DNA of 63,361 bases, counting the filler. It is 12 parts of 12 records of this genome, joined end to end, with 100 filler letters (N's around TTAATTAATTAA, not from the genome) between each part and the next. Parts side by side here need not be neighbours in the genome. Positions count along the whole stretch, not along the records: positions 28,607 to 36,457 come from SRR7504441_16481; 11 more parts are not named here. One strand, written 5' to 3'. Of the stretch, positions 1 through 54,700 are shown in pieces (within the stretch, counting starts at the first letter, position 1; the number at the start of each line of letters is the position of its first letter). The notes under the pieces are model-generated. The model did no database searches and had not been told where the DNA came from. It saw only the letters and a program-made list of their open reading frames with translations. Made by a program: the position numbers and the translations under genes.

Positions 1-2419
1 GATGCAAGAGGTGAGATCATAGTCACCTGTGGTAGTCACCTGTGGTATTCTGGCTGAACTTTGCACTTGTAATACCCGTAACAGCCCTAATTATGGTTGA
101 CGCATCTGCTTGCAGGCAAAGATGGAGCTGATTAGCACACGTGCAAAGCTGGAAGGCCATCGGGAAATGACAGCGTTGCTTTCACACAAGCTGCGATCAC
201 CTGTCGCAGTATTAGATTATAAGCTGCGCTATCTCACTGCAGATGCAGTGTTCGCTGAGCGCTTTGCTACAGATGCTGCCGAGATGAGGGAGTGCATTGG
301 AAATGTCGTCGAAATTTGCGAACAGCTCACCCACGAAGAACTCGGGGTCGCCGAGGGATCTGCATTTGCCGCAGCAAGACAGGCTGCGTCTGAGGATCGA
401 CATGCTAGGTTGCAAACCCCGCCCCACAGTGAATGTGAGGAAGGCCGCAAGGGGGTGTTGATGGTGCTGGTGGTGGACGACGTAGCTTCTCTTCGGAAGG
501 CTACGCGGCACCATTTGAGTAGCATGCTAGAGCAATGCGAGCGCCCTTTTAGAGTCAGTGATAAGACCTGTGAGATCCTGGAGGCAAGCACTGGCGAGCA
601 GTGTCTTGAAATGACCTCCAGGACCTGTTTTGATGTAATTCTGATGGACCAATACATGCATGGCGCTGGTGGCAAGCTTTTGGGCTCCGAGACTGTGCAT
701 CTCTTGCGACAACAGGGGTATTCTGGTTTGATCATTGGTTGTTCAGGGAACAACGAGTGCGCGCCTCTGTTTATTGAAGCCAAAGCCAATTTCTTTTGGG
801 GCAAGCCAATGCCTGACGATTCTCAAGTGATTAAGGTATTGGAGCAGGAATTGCGCACCATTAAACCTGAGGTTCAAGCAAGAGGCGCAAAAGGCACAGT
901 TTTGACTAACGGTCCATCTAGCCATGTGCGCTACCAGCAGTGGGCAAAACAAATTCTTCATGATTTGGGCACACCGCTTCAAACACTGCAGCTTGCATTT
1001 AGCCAGCGTGATCGACATGCCATGGAGCTCGCTATTCGGCACATTGTGTTTCTCCGCAACATGTTAACAGAGGAGGCCAAACTTCAGCATGGCGAGGTTC
1101 TGACGCCGCACAGACAATCATGTGACCTGTCCCAGCTAATTCAGGAACTTGTAGTGATGACAAATAGCCAGGTGTGTGCAGCAGATTTAGTGCTGAGAGT
1201 TGAGATTCCCGAAGGATTGCCGCCTATCATAACGGATTCTACTTGGTTGATGTCGATGGGGATAAATTACATTTCTAATGCGGTCAAGCATGCATCCGAA
1301 GCGGTTCGCCTGGTGGTCAAAGTGTCGACTTCGTGGCTTCGTGTGGAGGTCCACGACGATGGTCCAGGAGTGCCTCACTCATTTAAGGACAAGTTGTTTC
1401 AAGAGTATGAGTGCGAGCAAAGCTATAATGGCGGCCTTGGCTTAGGTCTAGTGAGTGTCAAGGCACAGGTTTCGGAGCTTGGTGGGCAATGCGGACACGA
1501 TGACAGCATTTTAGGTGGCGCCATGTTTTGGTTCGAAATCCCATACTGCCCAGACAATATGACGGACGCATGCGCAGTGGAGAACCTGTCTGGCTTAGCA
1601 ACGAGGGAATGCCTGCACGTTCTAGTGGTAGATGACAGCAAGGCTCTGCGAGAGTCACTCCAAGCTATGCTCGAGAGCCATGGGCATCACGTGGCTACTG
1701 CAATGAACGGGCGGCTTGCGCTCAAGCAGATTCAGGAAATGCATAGTAGCAAAGGGCTGACGTACTCAGTTGTGCTGTGCGATGTTCAAATGCCACATTT
1801 GGATGGCTTTCAGCTTGTTGCTGCATTGCGGAGATGGGAAGCAGAACTGCCTTTGGGAAACAAGCCCAAACAACCCGTGGTTCTCATGAGTGGGAATTGC
1901 TCAGATGCCGATATTCAGAAGGGCACGGCTGCTGGTGCCGATGGGTATGTTGGCAAGCCCATTGAGAGTAAGCAGCTGATCGAGGCAATCACCCATGTAT
2001 CGCATCATGCTGCAGCAGAAAGTCGCGACCAGGTTCTCGATAGAGAACATCAGACTGATCATGGAGCCACCACAAATGTGCATAAATTAGACGCCGCCAG
2101 TGCTGTAGTCGGCGCATTGCAGTCGATGTATGGAGCGGGCTGTGCTGAAATTGTAACCAGCGCATTGCAAGAAATCGAGTCTGACCTAGCAAGCCTTGAC
2201 AATCCTACTGCGGAGAGTGCTAAAGTTGCACATAAGATGAAAGGGGTTCTGGGAATGCTCTACTTGCACGAAGCATTCCAGGAAGCAAATGCACTAGAGA
2301 AGTTGCTCAAAGCCGGCTCCTTTACCAGCGCTCAAGAACACATAGCAAGTCTCCGTGAGTTGTTTAACTTGACTATTGCTGGTGAAATCTTACCTAATCC
2401 TGATGCGTTCCGGAATTGA
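1..2419 (+). CDS. Hybrid histidine kinase, 5'-partial (degenerate HisKA - REC - HisKA - HATPase - REC - HPt); intron 11-115
   Basis: REC motifs VLVVDD/ILMD and VLVVDD/VLCDVQMP; H-box LHDLGTPL; N-box NYISNAVKH; G-boxes DDGPG and GLGLGL; HPt AHKMKG. GT..AG intron at 11-115 precedes a 2.3-kb exon. Confidence 0.9.
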
Positions 2420-6383: not shown

Positions 6384-9300
6384 CTAGTCGCGCTCCTCAT
6401 CAAAGGATGCTGCCACCAAATTCGACTCACACCACATGAAGACCTATACTAAAGCACACCTGGAGCAAAGAGGATCCCGTCAGCTGAGTAAAACTTGGAC
6501 TGGAACTCGACCCATTGCAGACGGAGCGCATGCAGGAAAGCCGATAGCGTTTCCATCACCTAGACTCAGCCTCAGGCTCGGCTCACGGGTTGCACTGACC
6601 ATCAGAACTCCGACGGTTGCCGCCAGCCACACAAAGAAGCACGCGACCAGCATCGGGACTGACGAGTTCATCCCGACTCCAAACTTCTGCCCGTTGAGAA
6701 TGTAATTCCAAAACACCTGCTCAAGTGTCAGTTCCGGATGCGAGTCGGGTGCACCTCCGACAACTGAGAGTGTGCCAGAGAGAGCGCCCATAGCCGAAGG
6801 TACGAGGCCGTATTGGATATGCAGCCCAGTACATACTCTATCGTGTGGATGGTTTGATTGATCATGATCTCCGTAAAGTCGAATAACGGCTTGCTCTGCT
6901 CCTCCGATTCGAGCATTGCGTCCTCTTCCAGCTGCTGATACGGCACATCCCCGTGCCCGTCGCGCGTAATGCCCCGTGACGCCCCGTCGTTCTCTGCTTT
7001 GAGCGCGTACGGCTTGCCAAGCAGCAACCACGGCACGCAGACCTGCCCGGCGCTGGTCAGTTCCGTCCGCTGGCGGGCCTAGGACCACACAGACGAGCAG
7101 GAGCAGCCTCTGGAGCCATGTCTGGCCAGCACAGGTGCCACTCGGGCCGTACTCGCAAGTCGAGGCAAACAGCAGCACATTCTGGTGGAGCACCTGCCTC
7201 TGCACTCAGCCCGCAGATGCAGCGGGCAGAACGGACCGGTTTGGCCATCGCGAAGTCTATCAGGGTGTTGATGATCTGGGGCGGGCCTCGAGGCCACACG
7301 ACCCTGCCTTCGCTCGCCATGTTCCAATTGGTTGACCACTTGCAGAATATCAGGATCACAAGGTAACCAAAGCTGCACATAAACAAGAGCAATTCCGGCA
7401 CGCTCTCATGGAGCAGCACGATCGCAGCGTGCCGGCGCTTGGCCGGGCTCGGCTGGTTGGCTGGCTTTTGCCAGAAGATTTGGTTGACAGCCTTGAGGCA
7501 AACTCCGAGAGTCATCTGGCTCACTCCGAGGATGATAGACATTTTCATTTTGAGAGAGTTCGTGAACTTAATGCTGTTGCCCGACCAGCGCCAGGCAGGG
7601 TCGAGCCCGAATGGATATGGATTGCCGTCGTGGCCGATCAGGGTATATACTGATGGGTCCGGTTGCTCGAGACCTGCAGATTCTGGCCACGCAGATCCCC
7701 AGATATCGATTGGCACTGACGCGAGTTCGTTGTATATGAAGCCCATGTAGATGCTCATGATTGCCATCAGAAGGATCAGGTACCGGCCCTGGAACGGCAT
7801 TTTGAATAGCTCGTTGTCGATCTTGGCCAGCGTGTCCTCGTAGATAATACAAAACAAAGCGAATATGAGCAGAAAAGTGCCGTGCAGAATATCCCCAAAC
7901 ATCACCCCAAAAAGGAACGGGAAGAAGACAATCGCAAACAGTCCGGGGTTAAGCTCCTGGTACCGAGCCACGCCATATGCATTCACGATCCCTTGGAACG
8001 CAGCGGTCGCCTTGTCTGTCGGAAAGAAGGTCGGTATCGTGGTCGAGCTCCCAATCGGCTCCTCCATCATGTGCTTACCGTCCACACCCAACCCGAATGC
8101 GCCGGCAATCTGCTCCTCGCGCGCCGCGGGCAGCCAGGCGTGCACGGCCATGTACTGCCCGGTGGTGGCGCCCGAGCTGGATCCGACCACTCTAAACTTG
8201 TTCAAGTGATGGTACAGTATCGAACTCCGGCTAATCGTCTCCTTCCATCGGTCGGCCGAGTGCACAATCTGCCAGAACGCTTCCTGGTTCTGCAGTTCTG
8301 TCATCCGCACCACTTCTAGATCACGTTCCATGTCAACCTGGCGCAGCCCTTTCCGGACAATCATCTCCGAGGCCTCCTCCGCTGTCATCCGAGGGCACTC
8401 GTACACGCAGCAGTTGAACGCGTGGCAGATGTTGGTCACCTTCTTCAGAATCTCCTGGGCCGTCACGAAAATGATGAACACGCACTTGTACACCGGCTCG
8501 TTCGTTGCATAGTCTATCAACTTCTCCTCAATTGGCAGCGTCTTGGTCACCACATTTGACCGGCACGCGCGGAACAGCACTTGCTTGAAGCGCTCGACCC
8601 GGTCCGTGTTGATCACGCCAGTCAGGTGGAGTACCATGCTCGCGCCGAGCAATCCAGTCTCGAGCATCTCGTCAGAGTCGAGCGGATTGGGCTGGCCGTA
8701 CTCCTGCAGCTGCATCGACGCCCCCCCGAGCGACATGCTCGACTCAACAGGCGAGGCCATCGAGGCGAGCACTTTGGAGGCCAGTTGGAGCACATGCCTG
8801 CGCCCGGCTCAGCCAGGCCGGCAGGTGGGCAGGCACCGGTGCTCCTTCTTCCTGTTCAACCGCTGATTCGCCTCGGTGATCAAAAAGGAATTTTGGGAGA
8901 CGGTGCGCTCCAGCTCCACCAGCCGGTCGAGCAGCGCCTGGACCGGCTCAGCCGCCGGGGCCCGGGCTGGGCACCTCGATGCTGATCTGCTCCGTAGGAA
9001 GCCCAGCCTTGTTGCCAGTGAAAATGGACCGGCCACGGTCGCCCGTGCTGTCCGAGTCCACGAAACTGTTCACCTCGCCCATCAAGTACCTGCCCCCTCC
9101 GCTCGGCCCGCCCCGCCCGGCCGCCCGGCACCGGAGTACCCGATCGCACTCGGCGCACTGAAAAACAGCCGACCTGCCGCCGCGCTCGGGCGGTCGGACA
9201 CCCGGCGGCCCACCTGAAGCGGCGGGCCTCGCTGGTCGGGTTGGCATTGTCGTCGACGAACATCACCTACAACGGCTCAGCCGGTCGATGGGCCCGGCGC

Positions 9301-25281: not shown

Positions 25282-25348
25282 GTCCGTTATAATCAACGGC
25301 TACTGGGTGTGAGGCACGGGCGGGGGCAGTGGTCGGCACTGGGTGGTT

Positions 25349-26641
25349 ATGGCATACACGCCGGCGACCATCGGGGCCTGGTACATCTTCGACACTGGCC
25401 CGCTGCGGGAGGCCTTCGGGCTGCGGTACAAAGGGGAGGATTGCAACTTGGAGAAGCTCCTGTACTTTTACCCGGACGATTGCCCTGACGACCAGAAGAA
25501 GGACCGTGTGGGCTGCTGCGAGGCGCTGGTCAATTTCACCAAGATGTTCTCGCCCGACCAGCCGTGCCAGGCGGTTCATCTGCAGCGCCAACGGCATGGG
25601 TACATCGAGTGCGAGCCGGGGGTCTGGTGCGTACTGGAGGTGAACAATCCCGTGCACGACGCCGACGGCCAGACCGACTATCAGGAGGAGGAGCTTGAAG
25701 ATCTATGGGTGCGCAGCCTGCTCCAGCAGTCGTGGGACTACTTCCAGCTATTCCACGGCAGCCTCAGGCAGTGCTGGGCCCGGGGCGGTGGCGAGAATGC
25801 GGTACGAGAAGCGCTCGCTGCGTTCATGCCGCGCTGCCTGCAGATGATGATGTCGGCCATATCAGACTACAACGTGCTCAACTCGCTCGACGGGATTCAG
25901 TACCTGCCGGTGGATAAGCAGGCGTTCCTCTCGATCCAGTACGTTGTCAATATCATTCAAAGCTCGTTCGAACAAGTCCAGAAATGCGCTTTCTTGTACA
26001 ACGGACAGCTCGTTTGGAGCGGGTTCGACCAGCAGGTGATCCGCAGCCTCTACCACATGAGTGCTTCGGCCGACCAGACGCAAGGGGCCAACGCCGCAGC
26101 GCTGCTACGGATGTGGGCGGGCACGAGCGAGCACCCAGAGATCTACGACCAAGACGGGAACCGTTTGGTGCTGCTGCTCTGCTGCGTGGACCAGGTTCTG
26201 GCGCTTTTCCAGCTGCCGCACGAGGCCGCCACCGAGCAAACCGTCCGCGCACTAGAGGAGTACGTGAGCTCGGAGGTGGGGTCATTGGCTAAGATCATGG
26301 CCAAGAGCGTTGCGCCGTCGGGAGGAGCTGATGAGCCATGGAAGTATATATACTTCAATAAGATGAATCTGGCGCTCAAGAGCTCTCTCAAGTTGCGGGC
26401 CTCGGCGGTGGCGCCAACGGTCATGCGCACACTGAATGAGATGTTGGCACATCTTGAGAGCAACCGATTGGACAATGCGGAGATTTGCGTGCGGCAGCAG
26501 AAGGACGGATGGATCGTTGGCCGGAAGAGCAACGACAGGTTGCTGTTTGCTATTCTTGAGTCCAAGAGTTCTACCCTTAGCGAGATCGCAGAGGACTTGG
26601 ATCAGTTTATGGAGAAGTGTTTTAATAATATCTTAATGTAA
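25349..26641 (+). CDS. CCZ1: Vacuolar fusion protein CCZ1 (Mon1-Ccz1 GEF), intronless
   Basis: KLLYFYP, VGCCEALVNFTKMFSP, ECEPGVW, GIQYLPVDKQAFL, FLYNGQLVWSG, KYIYFNKMNLALKS, WIVGRKSNDR. Confidence 0.93.
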   Translation: MAYTPATIGAWYIFDTGPLREAFGLRYKGEDCNLEKLLYFYPDDCPDDQKKDRVGCCEALVNFTKMFSPDQPCQAVHLQRQRHGYIECEPGVWCVLEVNNPVHDADGQTDYQEEELEDLWVRSLLQQSWDYFQLFHGSLRQCWARGGGENAVREALAAFMPRCLQMMMSAISDYNVLNSLDGIQYLPVDKQAFLSIQYVVNIIQSSFEQVQKCAFLYNGQLVWSGFDQQVIRSLYHMSASADQTQGANAAALLRMWAGTSEHPEIYDQDGNRLVLLLCCVDQVLALFQLPHEAATEQTVRALEEYVSSEVGSLAKIMAKSVAPSGGADEPWKYIYFNKMNLALKSSLKLRASAVAPTVMRTLNEMLAHLESNRLDNAEICVRQQKDGWIVGRKSNDRLLFAILESKSSTLSEIAEDLDQFMEKCFNNILM

Positions 26642-31469: not shown

Positions 31470-32882
31470 TCACTGTGCCGGGGCAACCTGCGGCGCTTCT
31501 TCAGCAGCCGAAGTCTCGGCTCCAGCTGTGCTTGGCGGGGGGTCAGGCCACTTCTTCTCCATCTTTTGCCTCAGGCGGTGGATTCTGTGCGCCAGGTTCT
31601 CAAAGTCTCGCTTCACCACATCCTGTCGACAGTCTCAACAGAGCGTACCAGCGCAGCGCACCATGAAGTTGGGCATCTTAGACGACTTTTGAGGCGACCC
31701 GAAGGAGGCGAACCGGTTAAAGTGCTGCTCTATCTCGCCTAGCCCACTCTGTGAGCGCCTGGGGCATCAGGCCTGCAGCACCTAGCAACGACTCCTTGGG
31801 GGCAAAGCTTCCCAGCGTGTTGTCCCCGGCGTTGCCCCACTCGAGCTCCTTGGTCTCGAGCGCCTGCCGCCGTCTCCAGCGGCGCAGCAGCGTGGGGCCC
31901 CACCTCACGCAGCATCACGTTGGTCGCCTTCACGTCATCCAGCAGCGTCTGGTCTTCCTCGTGCTGCTTAGTCAGCCGAATGTTGACGTCCTGCAGCTCG
32001 CCAACTGTCTTGGCGATGTCGTCCTTCGCCCGCTCCAACTCGTCCAGCTGCTCCTTATAATGCCGCTCCTGCCCGGGCCTGCTCGCCTCTGCCCTGGGCT
32101 GGCCGGCGCACATCCTCCTCTGTCGCCTCGCTGTGACCCTTGGACAGGCTGCGCAGTTTGTTGTCCTTCTCTTGCACATCCGCCTCCAGCTTCTCCCGCA
32201 GGCTGGCGGCCTCTATGGCCTTGTCCTGGGCCTCAGCCAGCTCGCGCTTGGTCCGGTCGGTGGTTTTGGTCAGCGCCTCGTTCTGCTGCCTCGCCTGATC
32301 GAGCTCACTCTGGTACTCGTTCACTTGCTCCTGCAGCTCGCGACACCGGATCTCGAGCTCCGCCTTCGCCCTGCGCGCCGCGTCGGAGGCGTCCCCCTGA
32401 ACCCTCGCTGGTCAGCGCAGGGCCAGGACACGGAGGCCTCACCGCGCTGGTGTCTCGATCCTCACGCATGCTCTCGATCTCCCCCTCCATGTCCTTGACG
32501 ATGGTCGCATACTCGTTGGTTTTCTGCGCCCCGCTCGGCCCGGCCCCCAGCCGGCCGGCCCACCGACTCAAGGTTCTCGTTCTGGGTCTCGAGGTCGCGC
32601 ACCCGCCCGCTCAGCGCCTCGTTCTGCTCGGTCAGCTCGGCCGCCTGCACAGCGCCCCCGGGCTCGTCCGACTGGCCGGCCCGCCGGCTCACCTGGGCCG
32701 TGTGCTCGGCGGCGCGCTCGGCGGCCTCTCGCGAGATGGTCTCGCACTTTTCGACCAACATCTTGCCCATCTCTGCCCGGGCACGGTCGGCGGTCCAGCG
32801 AGCGGCGGGGCGCACCTCCAGCGGTCTGGAGCTCGTGTTGCTTCTGCTCCAAGGCCGCGCGCAGCTCCTCAACCGTCGACAT
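31470..32882 (-). CDS. Coiled-coil protein, BICD/BICDR/Spindly-like dynein adaptor candidate
   Basis: Spliced N-term LEQKQHELQTAGEMGKMLVE; long heptad repeats; KESLLGEIEQ. Confidence 0.6.
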
Positions 32883-33026
32883 GGCTGAGGTCGAAGCGCT
32901 GGGAGGCACCGAGGCGCTGTGTGCCTGGAGTGATTTGTCTTTGTCAATTCGTCCGTTGCTGCAGCTGGTCCAACGACACTTGCGGCGGTGAGAGGCTGGA
33001 ATGGTGTGAAGTTGGCCCAGCGGAGA

Positions 33027-36000
33027 ATGACCTGGAGCGAATGCCCCGGGGAGGAGCCGGTGGTGTCGTTGCAGTGGGTCCAGCCTGGGGGCGCCGGGCT
33101 CACGCTGCCGCAGGGTCGGGCTCACCGCGGCGTACGGGCTGCTTACGCTGCACGCCCTGCTCTTCCTCGCCACCCTGCGCACCCCCCGGCTGACCGACGG
33201 CAAGATCGGGGACCCGTTCTCCTGCCGCCTGGGTGCCCCCGGGCCCGGCTGCCGGCTCACCGGGCTGCAGCCGCTGGGCTGCTCGGGATAGCGGCGCTGC
33301 GAACGGGGACCACCTGCTTCTGCTACTACTACAACCCGGACACTGGCGGGTGCAACTGCATCTGCAGCGTGATGTACATGGCCGGCGAGCTGCTCTTCTG
33401 CGCGGCGGTGCTCTGGCTGCTCAAGCGCGTACTCGACTCTATCAATTTCATCAAAAAGTCGATCCGGTACCCCCCCCGGCCCGCCGCGCCGGCTGAGCCG
33501 GGCCAGCTGGTTCTTCGGGCTCACGATTGTGGCCCAGCTCGGGCTGGTGGTGACCGAGCTCTGGGCCTGCCAGACCGACCAGACCTTTGGCCGGATCCAG
33601 GGTGCGCTGGCTGCGCCGCACGCTCGACTGGCTGCAGGTCTGGTCAGCCGCGCGTCGATCCTGCTGATGCTCACCGTCACTGGAGTCCGGCTGTTCGGTA
33701 AGGACTCGCTGCGCCGGCACAAGTTCCGGACGATGCTGCTGAGCGTGATGCATGCGCCCCAGAGCAGGCTCGAGGCGCCCGAGTCGCGCGCCGACTACAA
33801 GCGCGACGTGTTCGATCGACTCACAGGAGACCTCGATTCCAACTTTAACCTGGCGCCCCGGCGGACCGGGCCGGGCTGACCGAGCGGCCAGGTGTTCAAT
33901 TTGATGATTCTGATGTCTGTGACCGGCAGCCTGGCGGCGCTGATTGCGGCGATCTTGGTGATAGACCGCTCGTGGGTGCAGTCGATAGAAGCGGACCACT
34001 CACTCTCGCTCCAGAGCATCACCAACCTGCTCGCCGAGGTGCGCGCGCCCTCCCCGCCCGGCGCACATGACACTACCGGCCCGGCAACCTGCGGCAGCAA
34101 TGCCGTGAACAGTGGTCCTGTGCTGGTCAGTACATGTGCAACATGACTAGCGGCCGACTCGGCATGGCCCCGGCCCGACCCGGCGCTAGGAGCCGGCCGC
34201 TGACAGCTGTGTACCTGGCCGGCTGACCGATCGGGGGGTCCAGGTGTGTGTGTATGTAGCCTTCGATTTGCTTTTCCGCAACCCGGATGAGGGTGGTTCA
34301 GTCTACTCGATCACTGAATCATTTCGGATCCTGCTCGGGCACTCGCCCCGGTGCACCCTCAGGTGGGCGGCCCGCGCCTGGCCCGATTGAGCCCGATGGT
34401 GCAGCGAGGACCTGGAGCAGCCTCTCCTGATCAGTGAGATGAACAGCCAGGCGCCGAGCTCGGCAGCTGGGCTGGAGGCAGCGCCCTGGAGGCTGATGCT
34501 CGCCCAGTGGGCCCAGGTCCGGCCCAGCCCGCCTCCCGCCCACTGTGTGCAGGCGCACGGGATGCTGGTCCGGCGGTCGAACAGCGGCGACTGGGACAGC
34601 GACTACGTGCCGACCACGATGGAGCGCGAGGACTCAGGCGATCGAGTGGCCCCGACCATCCTGGAGAGAGCCCAGCTGGTGCTGAGCGAGAACCGGCAGT
34701 CTGGGCCGGGGCACGACGGTGGGCAGCTCAGAGCGTCGATTGAGGAGGCGCGCGATGTGCAGCTGAGTAGCAGCGAGCGAACGGACAGCTCGCCTGAGTT
34801 ACTCAGGCTGATGCAAGTGCACGAGACGCTGCACAGAGGAGGGAGCGACCCCAAGCTGCAGGAGAACGTGGACCAGGTGATGTCCTCGCCGCTGCCGGGG
34901 GACGAGACCGACAAGCCGCTGCTGAGTAGGATCCGGTCTCCACTTTTTGAGACACTCCAGATGCAGCAGAGCACCGACGGGCGCCCTTCCGAGTCGGAGG
35001 CGCTGCTGCCGGATGCAGACATCTCGTTCTCTGTGCCGCTGCCGCGCTGGGACCACAGGCTGCGGGGTGCGATCAGCGGAGACAAGCGGCTGTCTTTTGT
35101 GCAGATCTCGTGCCGGGTGAATGCGCAGGTCGAGTTGGAGCTGAGCTCTACAGTTTGGGTGGAGGTCTGGATTCCGTGGCTGATGCTGGGCGACTGCCGC
35201 GAGGCCGCCAGGTCGTGGTGCGATGCCAGTGAGGGCAACTCGCAGTACTGGGTGCTCGGGGATAGCACTGAGCAGCGCGCACTCGACCAGCAAGGGAGCT
35301 GGCTAAACTTCATAGTCGCACTGGAGGTTGCCCGCAAGGCGCACAAGACCACAGGCACACCGGCCAGCCCTCGGTCAGAGGCCTCCAAATCAGCCACCGC
35401 CAGAGAGCTTGGCACAGCGCTTGGGTACTGGAGGATCTACACCCACCAGAAGCAGCTTGGCGAGTACAAAGTCCAGTTCAGAGTCCGAGGCCAGCGGTTC
35501 GGATCCGGCCAGTTGAATGACGTTGTGAGTGCCGAGAGACCGAGCGAGCCGCTGGCAGAGCTCGAGCTCTCCCTCAAGCAGGTGCTCAGAAGACGCCAGG
35601 GCGTGCACCGCACGTCGCTGCCGCAGCTTGAGCTTCTGCTGAATCCGCTGCCCATTCACGACACGCCAGTGCCGAGCAAATACCCTTTGGTGGCTCTGTA
35701 CAGCCTACCTGACGCGAAAGGCGACCAAGTGGACCCGGCAAATCGGCTGGTGGTGCAGGAGCACATGTGGGAATCAGTGCACTCATGGAATGTGCCGCTG
35801 AAACTGCTGCCAGTGCTTCAGAATGCGTGGCACCTTCAGCATGAGTGGCTGCAGCGGGCCTTCACCAACTTCGAGGACGTGTGGGGGAGCGTGCTGCAGC
35901 AGTACCGCTCTGCCAAACAGCACCAGCGATACTACTTCGAAGGGCTGCTGTCCAAGACTTTGATGGACCTCACGCTGCTTGAGGAGCTCTGCTGGCATGT

Positions 36001-36457
36001 GGACACACACGAGCGCATGACTCGCCAAGCAGGAGTAAGACCTGGGGTGCTGCGCAATCGGATCCAGGGGTACACTGAGGCAGCTTCCTTTGGCTGGGGC
36101 CCTTCTATGCTCTCATTCAAGCCTTCGCGGTTCAAGTCTGAGCAAGAGCTTGAGAACATATGCACCAATCTGCACTCACAGATGGTCGAGGTGCACAACC
36201 CCCAGACTGGCCGGCCTCAGAGGCGGTACATGGTGTCGTGTGGTGCCTTCGCAGCGCACACCCTCAAGTTTAAGCGCGGCCATGGGCTGTGGCACTTCTT
36301 CAGGAAGCGCGTGCACATCATCGAGAGGCTGCGCAACGACACGGAGCGGGGCATATGGACACCTGGGCTGCACCGTGCTCTTGTGTCACTTGAGGCTTCG
36401 ATCCGGTGGCGGCTGGAGATATGTTTGTCTCAGATGCTCTCTGCAGTAGTCACGGCG
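33027..36457 (+). CDS. 7TM (GPCR-like) - INPP4-type inositol polyphosphate 4-phosphatase fusion, 3'-partial
   Basis: Introns 33074-33113, 33233-33270, 33467-33506, 33602-33637, 33853-33891, 34039-34243 and 34351-34404 give one frame. Seven hydrophobic segments are followed by FKPSRFKSEQELENICTNLHSQ and VSCGAFAAH..FK..GL. Confidence 0.75.
34063..34208 (+). ncRNA. Candidate intronic box H/ACA RNA
   Basis: Hairpin with GCAA tetraloop, ACATGA (ANANNA) at 34141-34146, second hairpin 34148-34202, ACA at 34203-34205. Confidence 0.45.
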
Positions 36458-36644: not shown

Positions 36645-37838
36645 TTAAGCCTCAAGTGTAGTGAAGCTGACGCTTTGAGCCTCAAAAATGACCATGGAGT
36701 GGTTGTTGCGGTCGTAGAAGACTCCAAGGCTGCCGTCTCCCATGACGGTCATCGACGAGTACCCGGCCGCCTCGCCCCAAACCACCTTGTGTTTGTCCCA
36801 CGTGCTGCCCTGATCAGCGCTGCTCCACACCTGCAACCTGCAAATTCGTCAGCCAACCTAGCGGATTGGACTATTTAGAAATCACCGATTGCGGAACAAG
36901 TCCAGCGATGGGTCCGGGTGGCTGAAGTAGAGCTTCTTGGTGCCCGGGTGGTAGATCAGGCTGCCCTCGCAGCCACGAATCGGCTCCGGGAGCTCTTTGA
37001 CCTCTCGTATTGGGCCCCAACTCAGCCCGCCGTCATGCGACAGAGACTGGAGCCGGTAGCCTTTGCCCGTGATGCCGGCAGGCACGTTGGGCGAGTTCCT
37101 AACGCTCGCCAGCAGGATTGGGACCCCGTCAGCCGTAAAGTTGCCGGTCTCAGCTACGGCCCACTCTCCAGCACTGCCACCCTTGAAGTACTTCTCCGCA
37201 GGCACGTTGCCGCCACATGACCAGCTGGCGCCGTGGTCATCGCTGAAGACCAGATAGACGCCCCCGCTGTAGACGGGGATGGCCAGTCGGCCTTTGGTGG
37301 GGCCCGCCGACAGCTGGATCCCCCCGGCATGGCCGGTCCCTCCAAACCCGCTGCCTCGCCGGAGGGTGGACGAGACGTTGACGGCCGCCGACCAGCTGGC
37401 TCCCTCGTCCGCTGAGTGCGAGAGGAAGAGCTCCGAGTTGTTCCGGGTGTGCAGCAGCCAGATCTTGCCGTTGGACGCGTCCTCCACCCAGTTGCCGTCG
37501 CCCACCGTAGTCCACGCTTTGTCAGTGCTTCTCCCATACATGACCTGCGCCGGCTGCCAGGTGGTGCCGTTGTCCAAGGAGCGCCGTAACAGTAGATCCA
37601 CGTACCCTTGGTCGTCGCAGCTGTACTTGCGGGCCTCGATCATGGCCAGCAGCGTGCCCGACTGGCTCGTGCGGAGGAGCGTCGGGATCTTGTAGCAGCC
37701 GTAACCAAGCTGGCCCGGGCAGTAGAGGTCCGTGTTGCGCGCATCCGGAGCCAGACATCCCGGCTTGAGCGAGGCCGGGAAACCCGGTTTGGTCGCGGTG
37801 CTGCAGGAGACGAGGAGGAGTGCAAGTCCAGCCCGCAT
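36645..37838 (-). CDS. Secreted sialidase-like BNR-repeat protein (GH33); intron 36838-36885
   Basis: Signal peptide; YKIP; Asp-boxes SLDNGTTW, SADEGASW, SDDHGASW, SHDGGLSW, SADQGSTW; AGYSS. Confidence 0.92.
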
Positions 37839-38026
37839 GCTCCCGATCCCGATTTTTTATTTGCAAGGGGGTGGGCAACCACGGGCCGGCGGTACGCGGC
37901 CAGCGGCGCGGCGAGTGCGCGGTAGTGGTGCGCGTCTTTGGTGCGGCAGTCCATCTAGCAGTGGACGTCTGAGGCCGTCGGGCGCGCCGGCCGCCCAGTT
38001 GGCTCGGGCCCCGATCGCTCGGCGCG

Positions 38027-48815: not shown

Positions 48816-49685
48816 CTACAACTTTGGCCTCTTTGTTTCGTATCGGTCCACTAAGGCCTCACCTTCCTTTGTAGCTTGCACGAGCTGCTCAAGAATGCTC
48901 TTCCAGTGCCTTCGAACGAGCGTATGATTCTCGCCCTCAATGATGTTCATCTTGATCTCCAAATGCTCCTCCAGGTACCTGCCCACCTCCACCGGCACAT
49001 CCGAATCTGCGGTCCCGTGCCACGCCAAAACCGGCATTCTCTTCCCGATCCCCTCCAGCTCAAACCCCCAGTCCTTGCTCTCCAGCACGCTGTCCTGCGC
49101 CGCCCCCTCCAGTCCCTGCCGCACTGCCTCGTCCAGGTCTGCCAGCGCGATCGCCCTCCGGTCCGGCTTCTTCATCTGCTCGTACCCCTCGCGCATGCCC
49201 TGTTCGACCAGCCGCATCCGGGAGAGCGCGGCCTCCATCTCGAGCCCCTCTGCGCCGCACCCGTACATCTGGGGCACCATCCCCATCCGGCTGTACGGCC
49301 CGTCCGACGACACCAGCCCCAGCCCGCTGACCAGCCCGCCGCCCAGCCCGGCGGCGCAGGCCAGCGCGTTGGGTCCGCCGCTCGAGAAGCCGAGCACCGC
49401 CAGCTTGGAGAGGCCCAGCTCGGCGGCGAGTTGGGTCAAGTCCCCGGGGGCGGTCGCGTAGCTCCGGCCGGGCAGGAAGTCCGACTGGCCGTACCCAGGC
49501 CGATCCAGGGCGATCACACGGGCCCCGGCTGCCCGGCTCTGGGCGTCGCTGTCGGCCCAGGCCGGGGCGAACAGCCGGGAGTTGAGGTTGCCATGCAGGA
49601 AGATCACGGGGAAACCCCCCGGGTCGCCGTACTCGCGCCAGGCCAGCGCCCTGCCGTCGGCCAGCACCAGCCGCCGAAAGGCCAT
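48816..49685 (-). CDS. Alpha/beta hydrolase, intronless
   Basis: FLHG, DRPGYGQS, GFSSGG, WHGTADSDVP, GENH. Confidence 0.92.
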   Translation of the reverse strand: MAFRRLVLADGRALAWREYGDPGGFPVIFLHGNLNSRLFAPAWADSDAQSRAAGARVIALDRPGYGQSDFLPGRSYATAPGDLTQLAAELGLSKLAVLGFSSGGPNALACAAGLGGGLVSGLGLVSSDGPYSRMGMVPQMYGCGAEGLEMEAALSRMRLVEQGMREGYEQMKKPDRRAIALADLDEAVRQGLEGAAQDSVLESKDWGFELEGIGKRMPVLAWHGTADSDVPVEVGRYLEEHLEIKMNIIEGENHTLVRRHWKSILEQLVQATKEGEALVDRYETKRPKL

Positions 49686-49739
49686 GGACAACTGATGAAC
49701 CCCGCAGCTGCAGCACCGCGGGCGCGGGGGCCGGCAGCA

Positions 49740-51403
49740 ATGGTGGTGGGACGCTGGGCACGCTCCTCTCATGAGCACCCACGGGGTGGCTCTGCTGTGG
49801 GCCTTGTCGCTCTGGTGGTTCTCCTGGGGCGGCTCGCGGGCGGGAGCCCGCTCTCAGACGACGAGAGCGTGGTGCAGCTGCCGTTCGGTTCGGTCCGCGG
49901 GCTGGTCCACCCTGGCGCCCGCGAATTCCTGGGCATCCCCTTCGCTACTGCCGAGCGGTTTGGGCCGCCTGCCGCCTGGGCTGCCCACTGGGGCGCGCTG
50001 GATGCGAGGCGGTATTCAGTGCGGTGCATGCAGCCGGTGGCTCCAGGGCCTGCCAGCCCGGTCCCCATGTCCGAGCAGTGCCTGCACCTGAACATCTTCA
50101 CGCCGCGTAGCCAAGCCGGCCTGCTCCCGGTCTTGTTGTGGATCCATGGCGGGGCGCTCACCTCCGGGAGTGCGATGAGTCCGCTCTACAATGGCACCCT
50201 GCTGGCCCACAGCCAGAAGGTGGTGGTTGTGGCGATCAATTATCGGCTCAACGTGTTCGGTTTCGGCGCGATCAAAGGGGTGGACGGCCGGGTGGTGGGG
50301 GCCAACAACGGGTTCCGGGACCAGCTTGCTGGGCTGGGCTGGGTGCGAGACCATATCGCAGCGTTTGGTGGCGATAATGCCCGGGTGACTATCTTCGGTG
50401 AAAGCGCCGGCGGGCAGAGCGTGGCCGTGCACATGGTGTCGCCGCTTGCACGAGGCCTATTCCACGCGGCCATCAGTGAGAGCGCTGACGTGAGCGCTGT
50501 GTGCAGCATGGAGCAGGCACTCAGCAGGACCCGTGTGGTGGCTGCCAACGTCTCGTGTGGCAACAGCACTCTAACGTGCATGCGCTCAGCGAGTCTTTCT
50601 GCATTGACGGCCGCAGCCGGGCTTTCCGACTGGAGCTCTGCGGCTGTGGACGGAGTGGTGCTCCCAAGCGACCCGATCAGTCTGGCGGCGACAGCCCAGC
50701 GCGTCCCGTACATCCTTGGGACAAACCGAGACGAGTTCTCGCTATTCGCAGCCTTGGCGGGCGGGGTCCGTTTGAGTGCTGCTCAGGCCCGATGTGCCCT
50801 CAGCCACCTCGGGTCGAGCGTCGCAGCCCAGCTAGACGAAATCTACCCGATCATTGACGGTCAAGACAACAGGGCTGTGCTCACCAGTGCGATGTCCGAC
50901 GTGCGTAGCCGTCCTGAGCTGCGGGTGCTGAGCCGTGGGTACAGGTCATGCACTGCAGCAGCCGCCGATTCGCACTCGGGCTCACACGGTCAGGCAGTCC
51001 GCCCTGGCTGTATTCTTTCCAGCGGACTCCCGGGTGCGGCGCAGTCCACCCAGGAGTCCCAGGCGCGGCGCACTCGTTCGAGATTCCTTATGTTTTTCAA
51101 GTACTGCCTTACATCAACGGTTCTTGCCGTGTGCCCAGTGTGGATCTGAAGCTTTCGAACGCCATGGCTAATATGTGGGGCAGCTTTGCGAAAGAAGGTT
51201 TGGCGACTTGGGCGCGATTTTCTTTGGACAAACAAGAGGCAGCAGTGCTTGACATTGGCATCGACTGGCGGAGCCCGGATTTGATCGGCGGGTATCGGCG
51301 TGGGCAATGCGAGGTGATTGATCGCCTAGGACTCAACTTCCGCAACTCGTTTGATCCAATGATTTGGAACATAGAAAGGTGCTTGCGGTCGGAAACCGAT
51401 TAA
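49740..51403 (+). CDS. Carboxylesterase type B; intron 50901-50944 (approx.)
   Basis: FLGIPFA, SEQCLHLNI, WIHGG, NYRL, FGGD..TIFGESAGG, AAHSFEIPYVF. Confidence 0.93.
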
Positions 51404-51709: not shown

Positions 51710-54700
51710 ATGGACGGCGAGCCGATGGACGGCGAGCCTGCTGCTAGCCCCCCGGTCGACGAGGCCGTATCGGCGGCACCCGGGCTGGAGTCGGCCCCGG
51801 ATCCGACCCCGGAGCCGGCCCCGGAGCCGCAGCCTGCCGCCAAGCCGACCCGGTTCACGCTCCCTGAGGGTTGGACAATCATCCAAAAGACCCGGACCGA
51901 AGGCAAGACCAAGGTGAGCCGGCCGCGGGCACGGGGACAGAGGGCTGGGGCACAGGGCACCTCAGACAAGTACTGCACCAACCCGGACGGCACCCGCCGC
52001 TTCCGCTCTCTCGTGGAGGTGCTGGAACTGGGCTGGTCTGGCCAACCCTCGGCAGGTGGCTAACTACCTTGAATGTCCCGAAAAGTACATACGGGCCCCG
52101 CGGCAGGCAGGTCCACGCCTGTGCCAGGGCTCGTCTGCCGCAGCCGCAGCGGCCAACCGGGCTTTCATGAACGGATGTCCAGAGTTCAAGTCAGCGCCGG
52201 CCCGGGGCGTGGGCTGAGCCTGGTGCAGGCTTGTCCGCCAGAACCGGTATGCGGCCGACGCCGAGGAGCTCCGGCCGACCGGCGGCGAGAAGCACATGAC
52301 TTGCTCGTGCACCCCCGAGCAGGGATGCGGCCCGGTTGGTCGCCGGGCTTGGCGTGGCACTCACCGTGCGCCAGGACTGCATGAACCGTCAGCAATTCCT
52401 CGAGTGCGAGCCGTTTGCCTGCCCGTCGCTCAAGGCTGGCGAGAAGTTTTGCGCCAACGCTGCGCTGCAAGAGAGGCGTTTTCCAAAGATAGAGCCCTTT
52501 CTAGTGGGAGACGGCAAGGGCTGGTGCGCCGGCCAGCCGTGGCCAGGCCGATGGCGGGAGTAGGGGGCTGCGTACGGGGGAGCCTGTGGCGGCGGGCACC
52601 ATGATCGGTGAGTACATGGGCGAAGTGATCACAAAGGTGAAAGCTGCATGCGCCGAGCTGAGCATATCTTGGCGGCGCAGGCTGAATGCATGAAAAGACT
52701 CTCCGATGGGAATCTGGACTTCTATTTCGCCAGCCTGACAGCCGATCTAGTGATCGATGCGGGGCCAATGGGCGGGCTGGCCAGATTCGCCAACCACTCG
52801 TGCAGTCCCAACTGTTTGATGGAGAAATGGACAGTCAGTGGGGAGCCGAGGCTGGTTCTGGTAGCCGACCGCGACTTGGCTGAGCTCGAAGAGATCACTT
52901 TCAACTACTCCGCGGACACGCTGGGCGACCACGTGACCCGGCAGCCCTGCCGGTGCGGCGCGCCCAACTGCGCAAAGTTCATTGGAGCCAAGATTGTGGA
53001 GCAGCAGCTCTCTTGGCTGGATAAATGCTCAAAACTGTTTGACGGAAGGAACAAGCCCACCATCGCCAAAGCGATCGAGCTTTTCCAGGTGCGGCCCGAC
53101 GAGCCAGCGCCGGCAGTGGTACCAGACCCTGTCAAGCTAGAGGCCTCAATATGTCATAATGACCCCGAGCCAACTGCTGAGCCTCAAGTCACTGAGGCCT
53201 CCGAAGTCAAGCCAGAGCCCCCAGAGCCACAAACTCAAGTGCCGGAGCCGCCAGTCAGCCCGCCTAAGATCGACGAGGCTGCAGTTGAGAGGGCCAGGCA
53301 GCTTGGGCTCGTTTTGAATGCCCATGTAATGGTCAAATGGGGCAAGAAGTATTACGATGCAACAATCTATGAGCTCGACTTTACGCGAAAGAAGCATCCA
53401 GTCACTGTCCACTTTGATGTCGACGACACCATCAGTCACGCGTCTCTCTCGAATGTGACACTCACTCCAGACGCAGACCCCGAGCAGGTGCCAGCTGGGA
53501 TGCAAGTCGGCTGCAGGGTGGAGGCTCAGGACTCGTACAGCCTGAACGAGCCAGACCGCTGGCACCAGGGCCGGGTAGAAAATGTCAAGCTCACCCAGAC
53601 CAAGAAAGGTGGGAGCAATCTCTTGTTCTGGGTCTATTTTCCTGCCACTGAGGAGTACCAGTGGTGCCGGCTGAACAACATTAGGTTGCCAACCCAGCCA
53701 GTAGAAGAAGTCCACCCAGCTCAGTCAGCCGAGCCTGAGGCTGCGTCTGCCGAGGAGCCCGCAGCAGAACCTGAGAGTGCCACTGGAGATGCGCCTGCAG
53801 CGGAGCCTGCGGCTGCGGCTGCAGAGGAGCCTGCAGCAGAACCTGAGAGTACTACTGGAGATGCGCCTGCAGCGGAGCCTGAGGCTGCGTTTGTCGAAGA
53901 GCCCGCAGAAGAGCCTGTCAATAGCGAGGCTGCAGCTGCAGAGGAGCCTGCAGCAGCTGAAGATGACTCACAGCCTGAAGAGTCAGCAGTTCATCAGGCG
54001 CCTGTAGTATATACGGATGAGACCATGATCATCAGGCTAGAATCTGCCATTGATGCTTGCAAAAACTGGCAACGAATCTTCAAGCAGAGGACAGCCAAAG
54101 ACGAAAAGGGCAATCCGCGGTGGCTGACCGAAGCTGAGACAGCGGAGATGATTGCAGCTGGTGCCAAGCTACCGCTGGTGATACCAGAGCTCAAGTTTCT
54201 CAAAGAGAGGGCTGCAAGGGTGAAGCCGGCCGTTGAGGCTGCGAACAAGGCCCTCACCACTGGGCAAGCTGTCAACGCAGTCGATGTGCGGTGGGTGATG
54301 GAAGAACTCCTCAAGTGCCATCCTGCAGGGATACCTGACTACACCAAGCTCAATAACCGGCTAAAGCGCTTGCTTGGTCAGGGCAAGAGCGTTGCTAGGA
54401 CTTTGTGCGAGGCGCTCGGTATTTACAGTAAGCAAAAGCTCTGGGACAAGGTGCTCATGGAACACGTGAGCGAACCAACCAGCCTCGTGTTTGTTCGCGA
54501 GAAATGCAAACGCCAGATCAAAAAGCGCAGACTAGATGAGCAAAAGCATGCAGTGGCGGTTGCTAGCAGCAGCGAATTTTCATCTTCGGGGAGAGTGCGG
54601 AAGAAGATCACTCACTTTGTGGCTGAGCCTGCCAAAAGTAAGTTCCTCTAGCGTATTAGCCCTGGGTTGGTAATGGGTTGGTGGTGTTGATTTCGGGGCT

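Follow-up and report, generated by a model that had tools for sequence, protein, structure and literature searches.

GPCR-bigrams (GPCR, G-protein-coupled receptor) were defined, in the two describing sources, by two features, their topology and the presence of an accessory domain (van den Hoogen et al. 2018, mBio, PMC5784254; 2018 PLoS Pathogens review, PMC6033456). Phytophthora infestans was credited there with seven GPCR-INPP genes and other oomycetes with one to nine (PMC5784254, PMC6033456); outside oomycetes, they were reported in the mBio paper only from Nannochloropsis gaditana, which had seven genes, and catalytic activity was stated there to have been tested for none of these proteins (PMC5784254). 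No further GPCR-INPP taxa were found in the accessible parts of the other GPCR-bigram literature. The gene analyzed here occupied 33027 to 36457 of a 63,361-nt stretch of DNA (the window, meaning the whole stretch that was analyzed), and it had been described in an original prediction, made from the letters of this stretch, as a seven-transmembrane (7TM) receptor fused in frame to an INPP4-type phosphoinositide 4-phosphatase. It was read, with a probability of roughly 0.8, as a single nuclear gene, expressed and with eight exons, from an uncultured marine eukaryote, whose product of at least 997 residues had seven helices fused in frame to an INPP4-family module; the fusion was supported by RNA junctions, by a homologue of the same layout (P0002), and by homology to INPP4 and IP4P domains (see below). 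By architecture, the gene belongs to the published GPCR-INPP class; by sequence, its membrane domain did not appear assignable to the family of the one oomycete example compared.

Parts of the window were contained, all as small shares, in 13 of the 15 public runs listed, one being a metatranscriptome, and four runs including this metatranscriptome (X5) were aligned to the window. The metatranscriptome gave two contigs, each at least 99% alike. RNA contig 1 (X5 record 11, 212 nt) was aligned on 33989-34036, 34242-34359, and 34402-34447, and its joints 34038/34244 and 34362/34405 (the tool's stated cut shifts) corresponded to GT..AG introns of 205 nt and 42 nt, respectively. Since 34039-34243 and 34363-34404 were skipped in this contig, the two halves of helix 7 were linked to the phosphatase frame, of which the contig reached the first 14 codons. 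RNA contig 2 lay on 34746-34982. Three other studies supplied DNA contigs that matched pieces at 95-100% likeness, and an unspliced DNA contig (X1 record 2, 33956-34133) ran across the donor of the 205-nt intron. DNA contamination gave no explanation for RNA contig 1, because a spliced contig cannot derive from DNA; the gene is expressed and spliced.

The large frame comprised 689 open codons, beginning at 34391 and running to the end of the contig. The hydrophobic stretches upstream of it sat in differing frames. Candidate short introns between 33027 and 34404 were enumerated mechanically, and a fitting set of seven was chosen. Removal of the seven introns originally proposed gave 993 codons with 0 stops from ATG 33027 to 36457, and with the last intron corrected by the RNA, the frame had 997 codons, still with 0 stops and with 4 residues gained; the fragmented open reading frames (ORFs) at 33.0-34.3 kb were in this way joined to the large ORF, as had been claimed. 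Six of the seven proposed introns stood exactly, including the 205-nt intron for which a check of RNA junctions had been suggested, but the seventh had to be replaced: instead of 34351-34404 (54 nt), the RNA skipped 34363-34404 (42 nt), and the proposed junction ..SPR/EDLEQ.. accordingly became ..SPRCTLS/EDLEQ.. in the RNA-corrected reading. As had been noted for the ORF track and the fusion, genes of this organism escape ORF tracks of the prokaryote style: here, introns of 36-54 nt, one of which is GC-AG, divide the membrane domain among seven fragments.

The gene model was further examined against P0002 (see below). Introns 4, 5, and 7 coincided exactly with gaps in the tblastn alignment of P0002 on the contig, the gap at intron 4 being one of 12 residues that closed to an ungapped alignment after removal of the intron, and the global alignment of the spliced protein with P0002 was ungapped at every exon junction. 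Intron 5 must use a GC donor, because the nearest GT donors (33808 and 33810) would delete a segment conserved in P0002, and its NL/VF junction agreed with P0002. The seven introns shared a common pattern: (i) donors GTG, GTA, or GCG followed by G+C-rich bases, together with acceptor CAG, in all seven and (ii) CTSAS located 14-21 nt from the 3' end in five, its position being taken by TCGAC or TTGAG in the remaining two. This donor/branch-like/acceptor pattern, including the GC-AG intron with its CTGAC motif, may serve as a gene-finding signature for this organism. The GC content at third codon positions (GC3) of the gene was 0.80.

Intron 1 and the start codon were the least certain parts of the gene model, since the BLASTP match of the membrane part began at residue 30 and the match upstream of it was faint. 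ATG 33027 was the first in its frame downstream of a stop at 32931; intron 1 was placed because the ATG frame must shift into the helix 1 frame, and alternative GT donors giving an intron of 46 or 49 nt would also keep the frame, as read from the sequence. The match of exon 1 to the P0002 N-terminus was weak in the global alignment. A divergent, intron-split coiled-coil gene was located at 31739-32882 on the minus strand, starting at 32882 (MSTVEELRAALEQK..) at a distance of 144 nt from ATG 33027, and a compact two-way promoter region lay between it and the seven-helix gene. Further 5' exons were unlikely because the divergent gene starts so close to this ATG.

Among 1.84 billion representative proteins, phmmer with the 684-residue frame as query (E <= 0.001) gave the following matches: (i) P0002 (1274 aa; E 1.5e-155; 50% identity; query 143-684 to 399-951); (ii) P0001 (390 aa; E 5.4e-30; 82% identity; query 609-684 to 1-76); (iii) P0003 (106 aa; E 2.7e-9; 73% identity; query 554-597 to 7-50); (iv) P0004 (1380 aa; E 6.4e-5; 31% identity; query 610-683 to 971-1046); and (v) P0005 (193 aa; E 8.7e-5; 52% identity; query 383-464 to 2-94). 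The spliced protein and P0002 were aligned in a single BLASTP match (6-997 with 6-951; 38.5% identity; 636 bits), and the membrane part alone also matched P0002 (30-312 with 30-295; 30.4% identity; E 1.5e-36). P0002 had the layout of the window protein, with N-terminal hydrophobic segments and with CKSGKDRT near its C-terminus; it was the sole product, in one ORF, of an independent 3997-nt Logan contig, which would fit a transcript. P0001 continued past the 76-residue overlap to CKSGKDRT. A word-based relative search with window residues 380-684 gave P0001 only, and a word-based search with residues 1-310 of P0002 gave only P0002 itself among 6009 candidates, being limited to proteins of 700-2230 residues and thus leaving stand-alone seven-helix relatives outside its range. 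Scans of JGI metagenomes gave 46 pattern matches for the P0002 N-terminus and 68 for the window frame, none of which was confirmed.

The membrane domain showed seven hydrophobic peaks in a 19-residue Kyte-Doolittle scan, with seven at matching places in P0002; the seven segments originally listed were thereby recovered. Lysines plus arginines numbered 17 on loops 1-2, 3-4, and 5-6 vs. 2 on the N-terminus and other loops (9 vs. 3 in P0002). Basic loops lie on the cytoplasmic side under the positive-inside rule, and because of this charge bias, the phosphatase would be cytoplasmic and the N-terminus would be on the outer side. Cysteines before helix 3 and after helix 4, both in outer loops, were kept in the window protein and P0002. 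After helix 7, the motifs DLLFRNPD, DLEQPLL..SEM, and PWRLML (34244-34504) were conserved with P0002 well above the linker that followed, which comprised about 170 residues and was poorly conserved between the two proteins; over some 130 residues directly after the segment, conservation was lacking.

The phosphatase part carried the INPP4 motifs (Table 1), of which the FKPS..NLHSQ and GAFAAH motifs had been pointed out in the original prediction, and these motifs were consensus columns in alignment A1, which contained seven sequences including the soluble INPP4-like proteins P0007, P0008, and P0009. The A1 consensus comprised FKPSxxKxxxxLxxxxxNLHxQ, GAFxAHTLKF, SQxLxAxVTA, and CKSGKDRT, and the last of these was also found in P0007, P0008, and P0009. 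A search with P0002 residues 700-1274 gave four proteins at E <= 0.001 among 7,997 scored candidates; P0007, which is named inositol polyphosphate-4-phosphatase by JGI, had E 3.5e-17, while P0008 carried a PH domain. P0004 was the oomycete protein Pythium oligandrum TMW67121.1, whose N-terminus held several helices and whose loop read CKSAKDRT; its alignment with P0002 spanned 440 residues at 26% identity (E 8e-29), and the FKPS..NLH region gave a further match. The A1 profile compared with PDB matched the IP4P domains of P-Rex2 (E 8.2e-36) and P-Rex1 (E 1.8e-25) and nothing else significantly. The P-Rex matches lay at profile positions 972-1322, and only the last ~40 residues of the window frame fell inside them. 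Pfam recognized no family in the 684-residue frame (E <= 1), in P0001, or in the C-terminal part of P0002, and found no C2 domain in the window frame at the same threshold; the window frame alone gave only chance-level BsmA rows in the PDB sequence search (E 0.12 and 0.28), and P0002 alone gave no match there.

The window thus held the N-terminal region of the family, and the catalytic domain proper would be that seen in P0001 and P0002. The catalytic CX5R motif was absent from the window because the contig (28607-36457; 7,851 nt; SRR7504441_16481), on which the fusion gene was open at the 3' end, stopped at 36457, upstream of the loop; this was as the original prediction had stated, and the position was followed by an artificial joint, with an unrelated contig beyond 36557. 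One DNA contig of run X1 extended 109 nt beyond 36457. The catalytic loop would lie beyond the contig end, where the two relatives reaching that far (P0001 and P0002) had CKSGKDRT.

The proposed layout of the protein would be a 16-residue N-terminus on the outside, helices within residues 17-284, the conserved inner segment, the linker, and the INPP4 module, so placed that a cytoplasmic phosphatase would be tethered to the membrane carrying its lipid substrate. INPP4A and INPP4B remove the 4-phosphate of PI(3,4)P2, as stated in the accessible text of PMC9694693, and the window phosphatase would presumably act in the same manner; a direct wiring to PI(3,4)P2 turnover, as originally suggested, is thus inferred from family membership. 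The seven-helix domain may sense a ligand or a membrane state and alter the activity or the reach of the tethered phosphatase. The signal may pass through the conserved inner segment (DLLFRNPD, DLEQPLL..SEM, and PWRLML) with no G protein needed; this segment was taken as the candidate transmitter because its conservation with P0002 stood well above that of the following linker.

The main functional rival accepts the fusion as real but takes the seven-helix domain merely as a membrane anchor or sorting module for a constitutively active phosphatase. It would fit the small ligand surface (an outside N-terminus of 16 residues and outer loops of 9-15), the lack of any Pfam match to a GPCR family in the window exons or P0002 at E <= 10, and the lack of a usable structure model. 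However, an anchor needs fewer than seven helices, and the outer-loop cysteines together with DLExPL..SEM and PWxLML were conserved at 30% overall identity, which fits a transmitting domain; the published GPCR-INPP class, in the accessible text of the mBio paper, was moreover read as receptors, albeit without experiments (PMC5784254). A plain anchor was considered unlikely, although it deserves serious weight. The original prediction of a 7TM receptor-INPP4 protein was in this respect divided: its architecture was upheld by the RNA, P0002, and the INPP4/IP4P homology, but the identity of the membrane part as a receptor or GPCR was not, there being neither a Pfam match nor likeness to the Pythium protein.

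A second rival takes the phosphatase module as a catalytically dead scaffold, like the P-Rex IP4P domain: the window lacked the catalytic loop, and the best solved-structure matches were the P-Rex IP4P domains, whose loop in the alignment reads CSSGVHR instead of CKSxKDR. This is improbable, given that CKSGKDRT was kept in P0001, P0002, P0007, P0008, and P0009, and CKSAKDRT in Pythium P0004. Least probable was that a wrong model or a chimeric contig had brought together an INPP4 enzyme and a small seven-helix protein encoded by distinct genes, because, even though the whole 3.4 kb was spanned by no single read or contig and the DNA contigs of other runs covered pieces, the spliced RNA contig led on from helix 7 to the large frame without a change of frame, no stop lay between the two parts, and P0002, encoded on an independent contig, combined both parts within a single ORF.

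Several observations weigh against the reading of a seven-helix protein fused to an INPP4-family phosphatase, or at least limit it. The RNA covered two of the seven junctions, and the first five rested on the single homologue P0002; the metatranscriptome run could contain some DNA. With five matching proteins among 1.84 billion, the conservation evidence was thin. The catalytic loop lay outside the window, so the activity of this copy was not readable from the sequence. The seven-helix part had no Pfam family at E <= 10 (five exon translations and P0002 residues 1-329), and PF06454 (THH1/TOM1/TOM3) in particular gave no match in P0002 or the window exons at this threshold. It showed no similarity to the membrane domain of Pythium P0004, the best BLASTP score being 20 bits and the hhalign probability 0.4% (with a two-sequence profile and one oomycete example). 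In the ESM Atlas, the P0002 N-terminus had a best score of 0.78 and scored 0.76 with a THH1/TOM1/TOM3 cluster, both below the 0.9 level and hence leads only. AlphaFold models were poor: P0002 1-329 as a single sequence was all-helical but unreliable, with a predicted local distance difference test (pLDDT) score of 45.9, and the window frame with nine aligned rows had 35.9, too poor for judging the fold or a C2 domain.

Table 1. Positions of the parts of the fusion gene and of the contig joint that follows it; nucleotide positions count along the window, and residues along the spliced protein
Feature	Position	Strand	Remarks
Exon 1	33027-33073	+	Start codon and short acidic N-terminus (residues 1-16), predicted outside
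Intron 1	33074-33113	+	40 nt, GT-AG; CTCAC 15 nt from 3' end
Exon 2	33114-33232	+	Helix 1 and first cytoplasmic loop; hydropathy; ..TLRTPRLTDGK.. vs. ..TLHTPRLSDQK.. in P0002
Intron 2	33233-33270	+	38 nt, GT-AG; CTCAC branch-like motif; frame restored, P0002 junction ungapped
Exon 3	33271-33466	+	Helices 2 and 3, cysteine-rich outer loop; hydropathy; tblastn of P0002 70-121 on 33312-33467
Intron 3	33467-33506	+	40 nt, GT-AG; CTGAG motif; frame restored, P0002 junction ungapped
Exon 4	33507-33601	+	Helix 4 and outer loop with conserved cysteine; hydropathy and P0002 alignment
Intron 4	33602-33637	+	36 nt, GT-AG; in frame, without stop
Exon 5	33638-33852	+	Helix 5 and a cytoplasmic loop, long and basic (10 lysines plus arginines in 55 residues)
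Intron 5	33853-33891	+	39 nt, GC-AG; CTGAC motif; in-frame TGA at 33877
Exon 6	33892-34038	+	Helix 6 and first half of helix 7; 3' end covered by RNA contig from 33989
Intron 6	34039-34243	+	205 nt, GT-AG; splits helix 7; skipped in RNA contig
Exon 7	34244-34362	+	Second half of helix 7 and conserved inner segment ..DLLFRNPD..; RNA 34242-34359 and P0002
Intron 7	34363-34404	+	42 nt, GT-AG; skipped in RNA contig
Exon 8	34405-36457	+	DLEQPLL..SEM, PWRLML, weakly conserved linker, N-terminal part of INPP4-family module; cut by contig end
Helices 1-7	Residues 17-35, 55-73, 85-107, 121-141, 151-172, 228-248, 264-284		Hydropathy
Helix 7	34009-34276	+	Interrupted by the 205-nt intron
INPP4 motifs FKPS..NLHSQ, GAFAAH..KFK, SQMLSAVVTA	36116-36457	+	Conserved columns in alignment A1
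FKPS..NLHSQ	36116-36181	+	
GAFAAH	36242-36259	+	
Artificial contig joint	36458-36557	none	N44-TTAATTAATTAA-N44

The window consisted of 12 contigs placed end to end, each of about 3.5-8 kb, and its 22 runs of 44 N marked 11 joints; all of these joints (6118-55830) had the same composition as the one in Table 1, and any feature spanning such a joint is an artefact. The host is a eukaryote of marine plankton: four studies had runs with near-identical DNA or RNA, their labels being aquatic, seawater, and marine metagenome, and the GC content was about 51-67% in 2-kb windows along the stretch. Other contigs of the window contained further genes: (i) a hybrid two-component kinase of 772 codons at 101-2419 (+), with a histidine-kinase ATPase, two receiver stretches, and an Hpt domain, in a eukaryotic bin; (ii) a V-ATPase subunit a gene in at least two exons at 6728-8808 (-), in which Pfam V_ATPase_I positions 159-599 matched in 7057-8808 and 622-741 in 6728-7078, with many candidate introns fitting between; (iii) a 324-codon frame with BNR (sialidase-like) repeats (BNR_2, 3.8e-10) at 36882-37856 (-), on the contig next to that of the fusion gene; and (iv) frames for a CCZ1/INTU-type longin, a carboxylesterase, and a SET domain at 25313-26641, 48855-51149, and 52612-54651, all being ordinary eukaryotic genes of use only in placing the bin.

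As for the origin of the fusion, it was tentatively considered, with rather more doubt than belief, that the seven-helix domain represents an unnamed receptor family unrelated to THH1/TOM1/TOM3, and that a marine plankton lineage belonging to neither oomycetes nor eustigmatophytes acquired the INPP4 fusion on its own. A tree of six phosphatase domains resolved only the grouping of P0001 with P0002. If the fusion was indeed independent, receptor-tethered PI(3,4)P2 4-phosphatases would have evolved at least twice, and this would speak for direct, G-protein-free coupling of sensing to phosphoinositide turnover as a recurrent solution in aquatic protists.

The IP4P domains of P-Rex1 and P-Rex2 (PDB 6pcv, 8tua, 7syf, and 9zq7) were the only solved structures matching the family profile (E 1.8e-25 to 8e-36), but the match lay almost wholly beyond the end of the window frame, and the P-Rex loop differed from that of the family (see above). 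Animal INPP4A and INPP4B and the soluble P0007, P0008, and P0009 shared the FKPS..NLHxQ, GAxAAH, SQxL..VT, and CKSGKDRT columns with the family; unlike the window protein, all of them were soluble, P0008 with its PH domain, and INPP4A and INPP4B begin with a C2 domain. GPCR-PIPKs (Dictyostelium RpkA and oomycete GKs), as described in the mBio paper, resemble the window protein in that a domain of seven helices is joined to an enzyme that modifies phosphoinositides, but this enzyme is a kinase rather than a phosphatase, and a conserved LRxGI motif stands next to the membrane domain (PMC5784254); at the corresponding position, as read from the residues, the window protein had DLEQPLL..SEM and PWRLML with no LRxGI.

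The closest systems were the GPCR-INPPs themselves. Those of Nannochloropsis gaditana have the same architecture and belong to a marine microalga, a likeness drawn from the published description (PMC5784254). That description covers oomycetes in addition, which the original prediction had named as the main holders of such fusions; the GPCR-INPP design was reported in it from oomycetes and Nannochloropsis only (PMC5784254). It is now met in an uncultured marine eukaryote. The oomycete GPCR-INPP P0004 and the window gene shared an N-terminal multi-helix domain, a long linker, and an INPP4-type module, with CKSxKDRT in P0004, and their phosphatase parts were homologous (P0004 vs. P0002, E 8e-29; P0004 vs. 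window residues 610-683, E 6.4e-5). They differed in that (i) the membrane domain of Pythium P0004 was THH1/TOM1/TOM3 (PF06454, 3.7e-10), whereas those of the window protein and P0002 matched no Pfam family, and (ii) the window gene had a marine plankton host and introns of 36-54 nt (54 nt being the uncorrected last intron). A second, very divergent membrane domain is hereby found on the same enzyme, and setting it beside the first could reveal which features of the design are important, with the conserved inner segment as one candidate.

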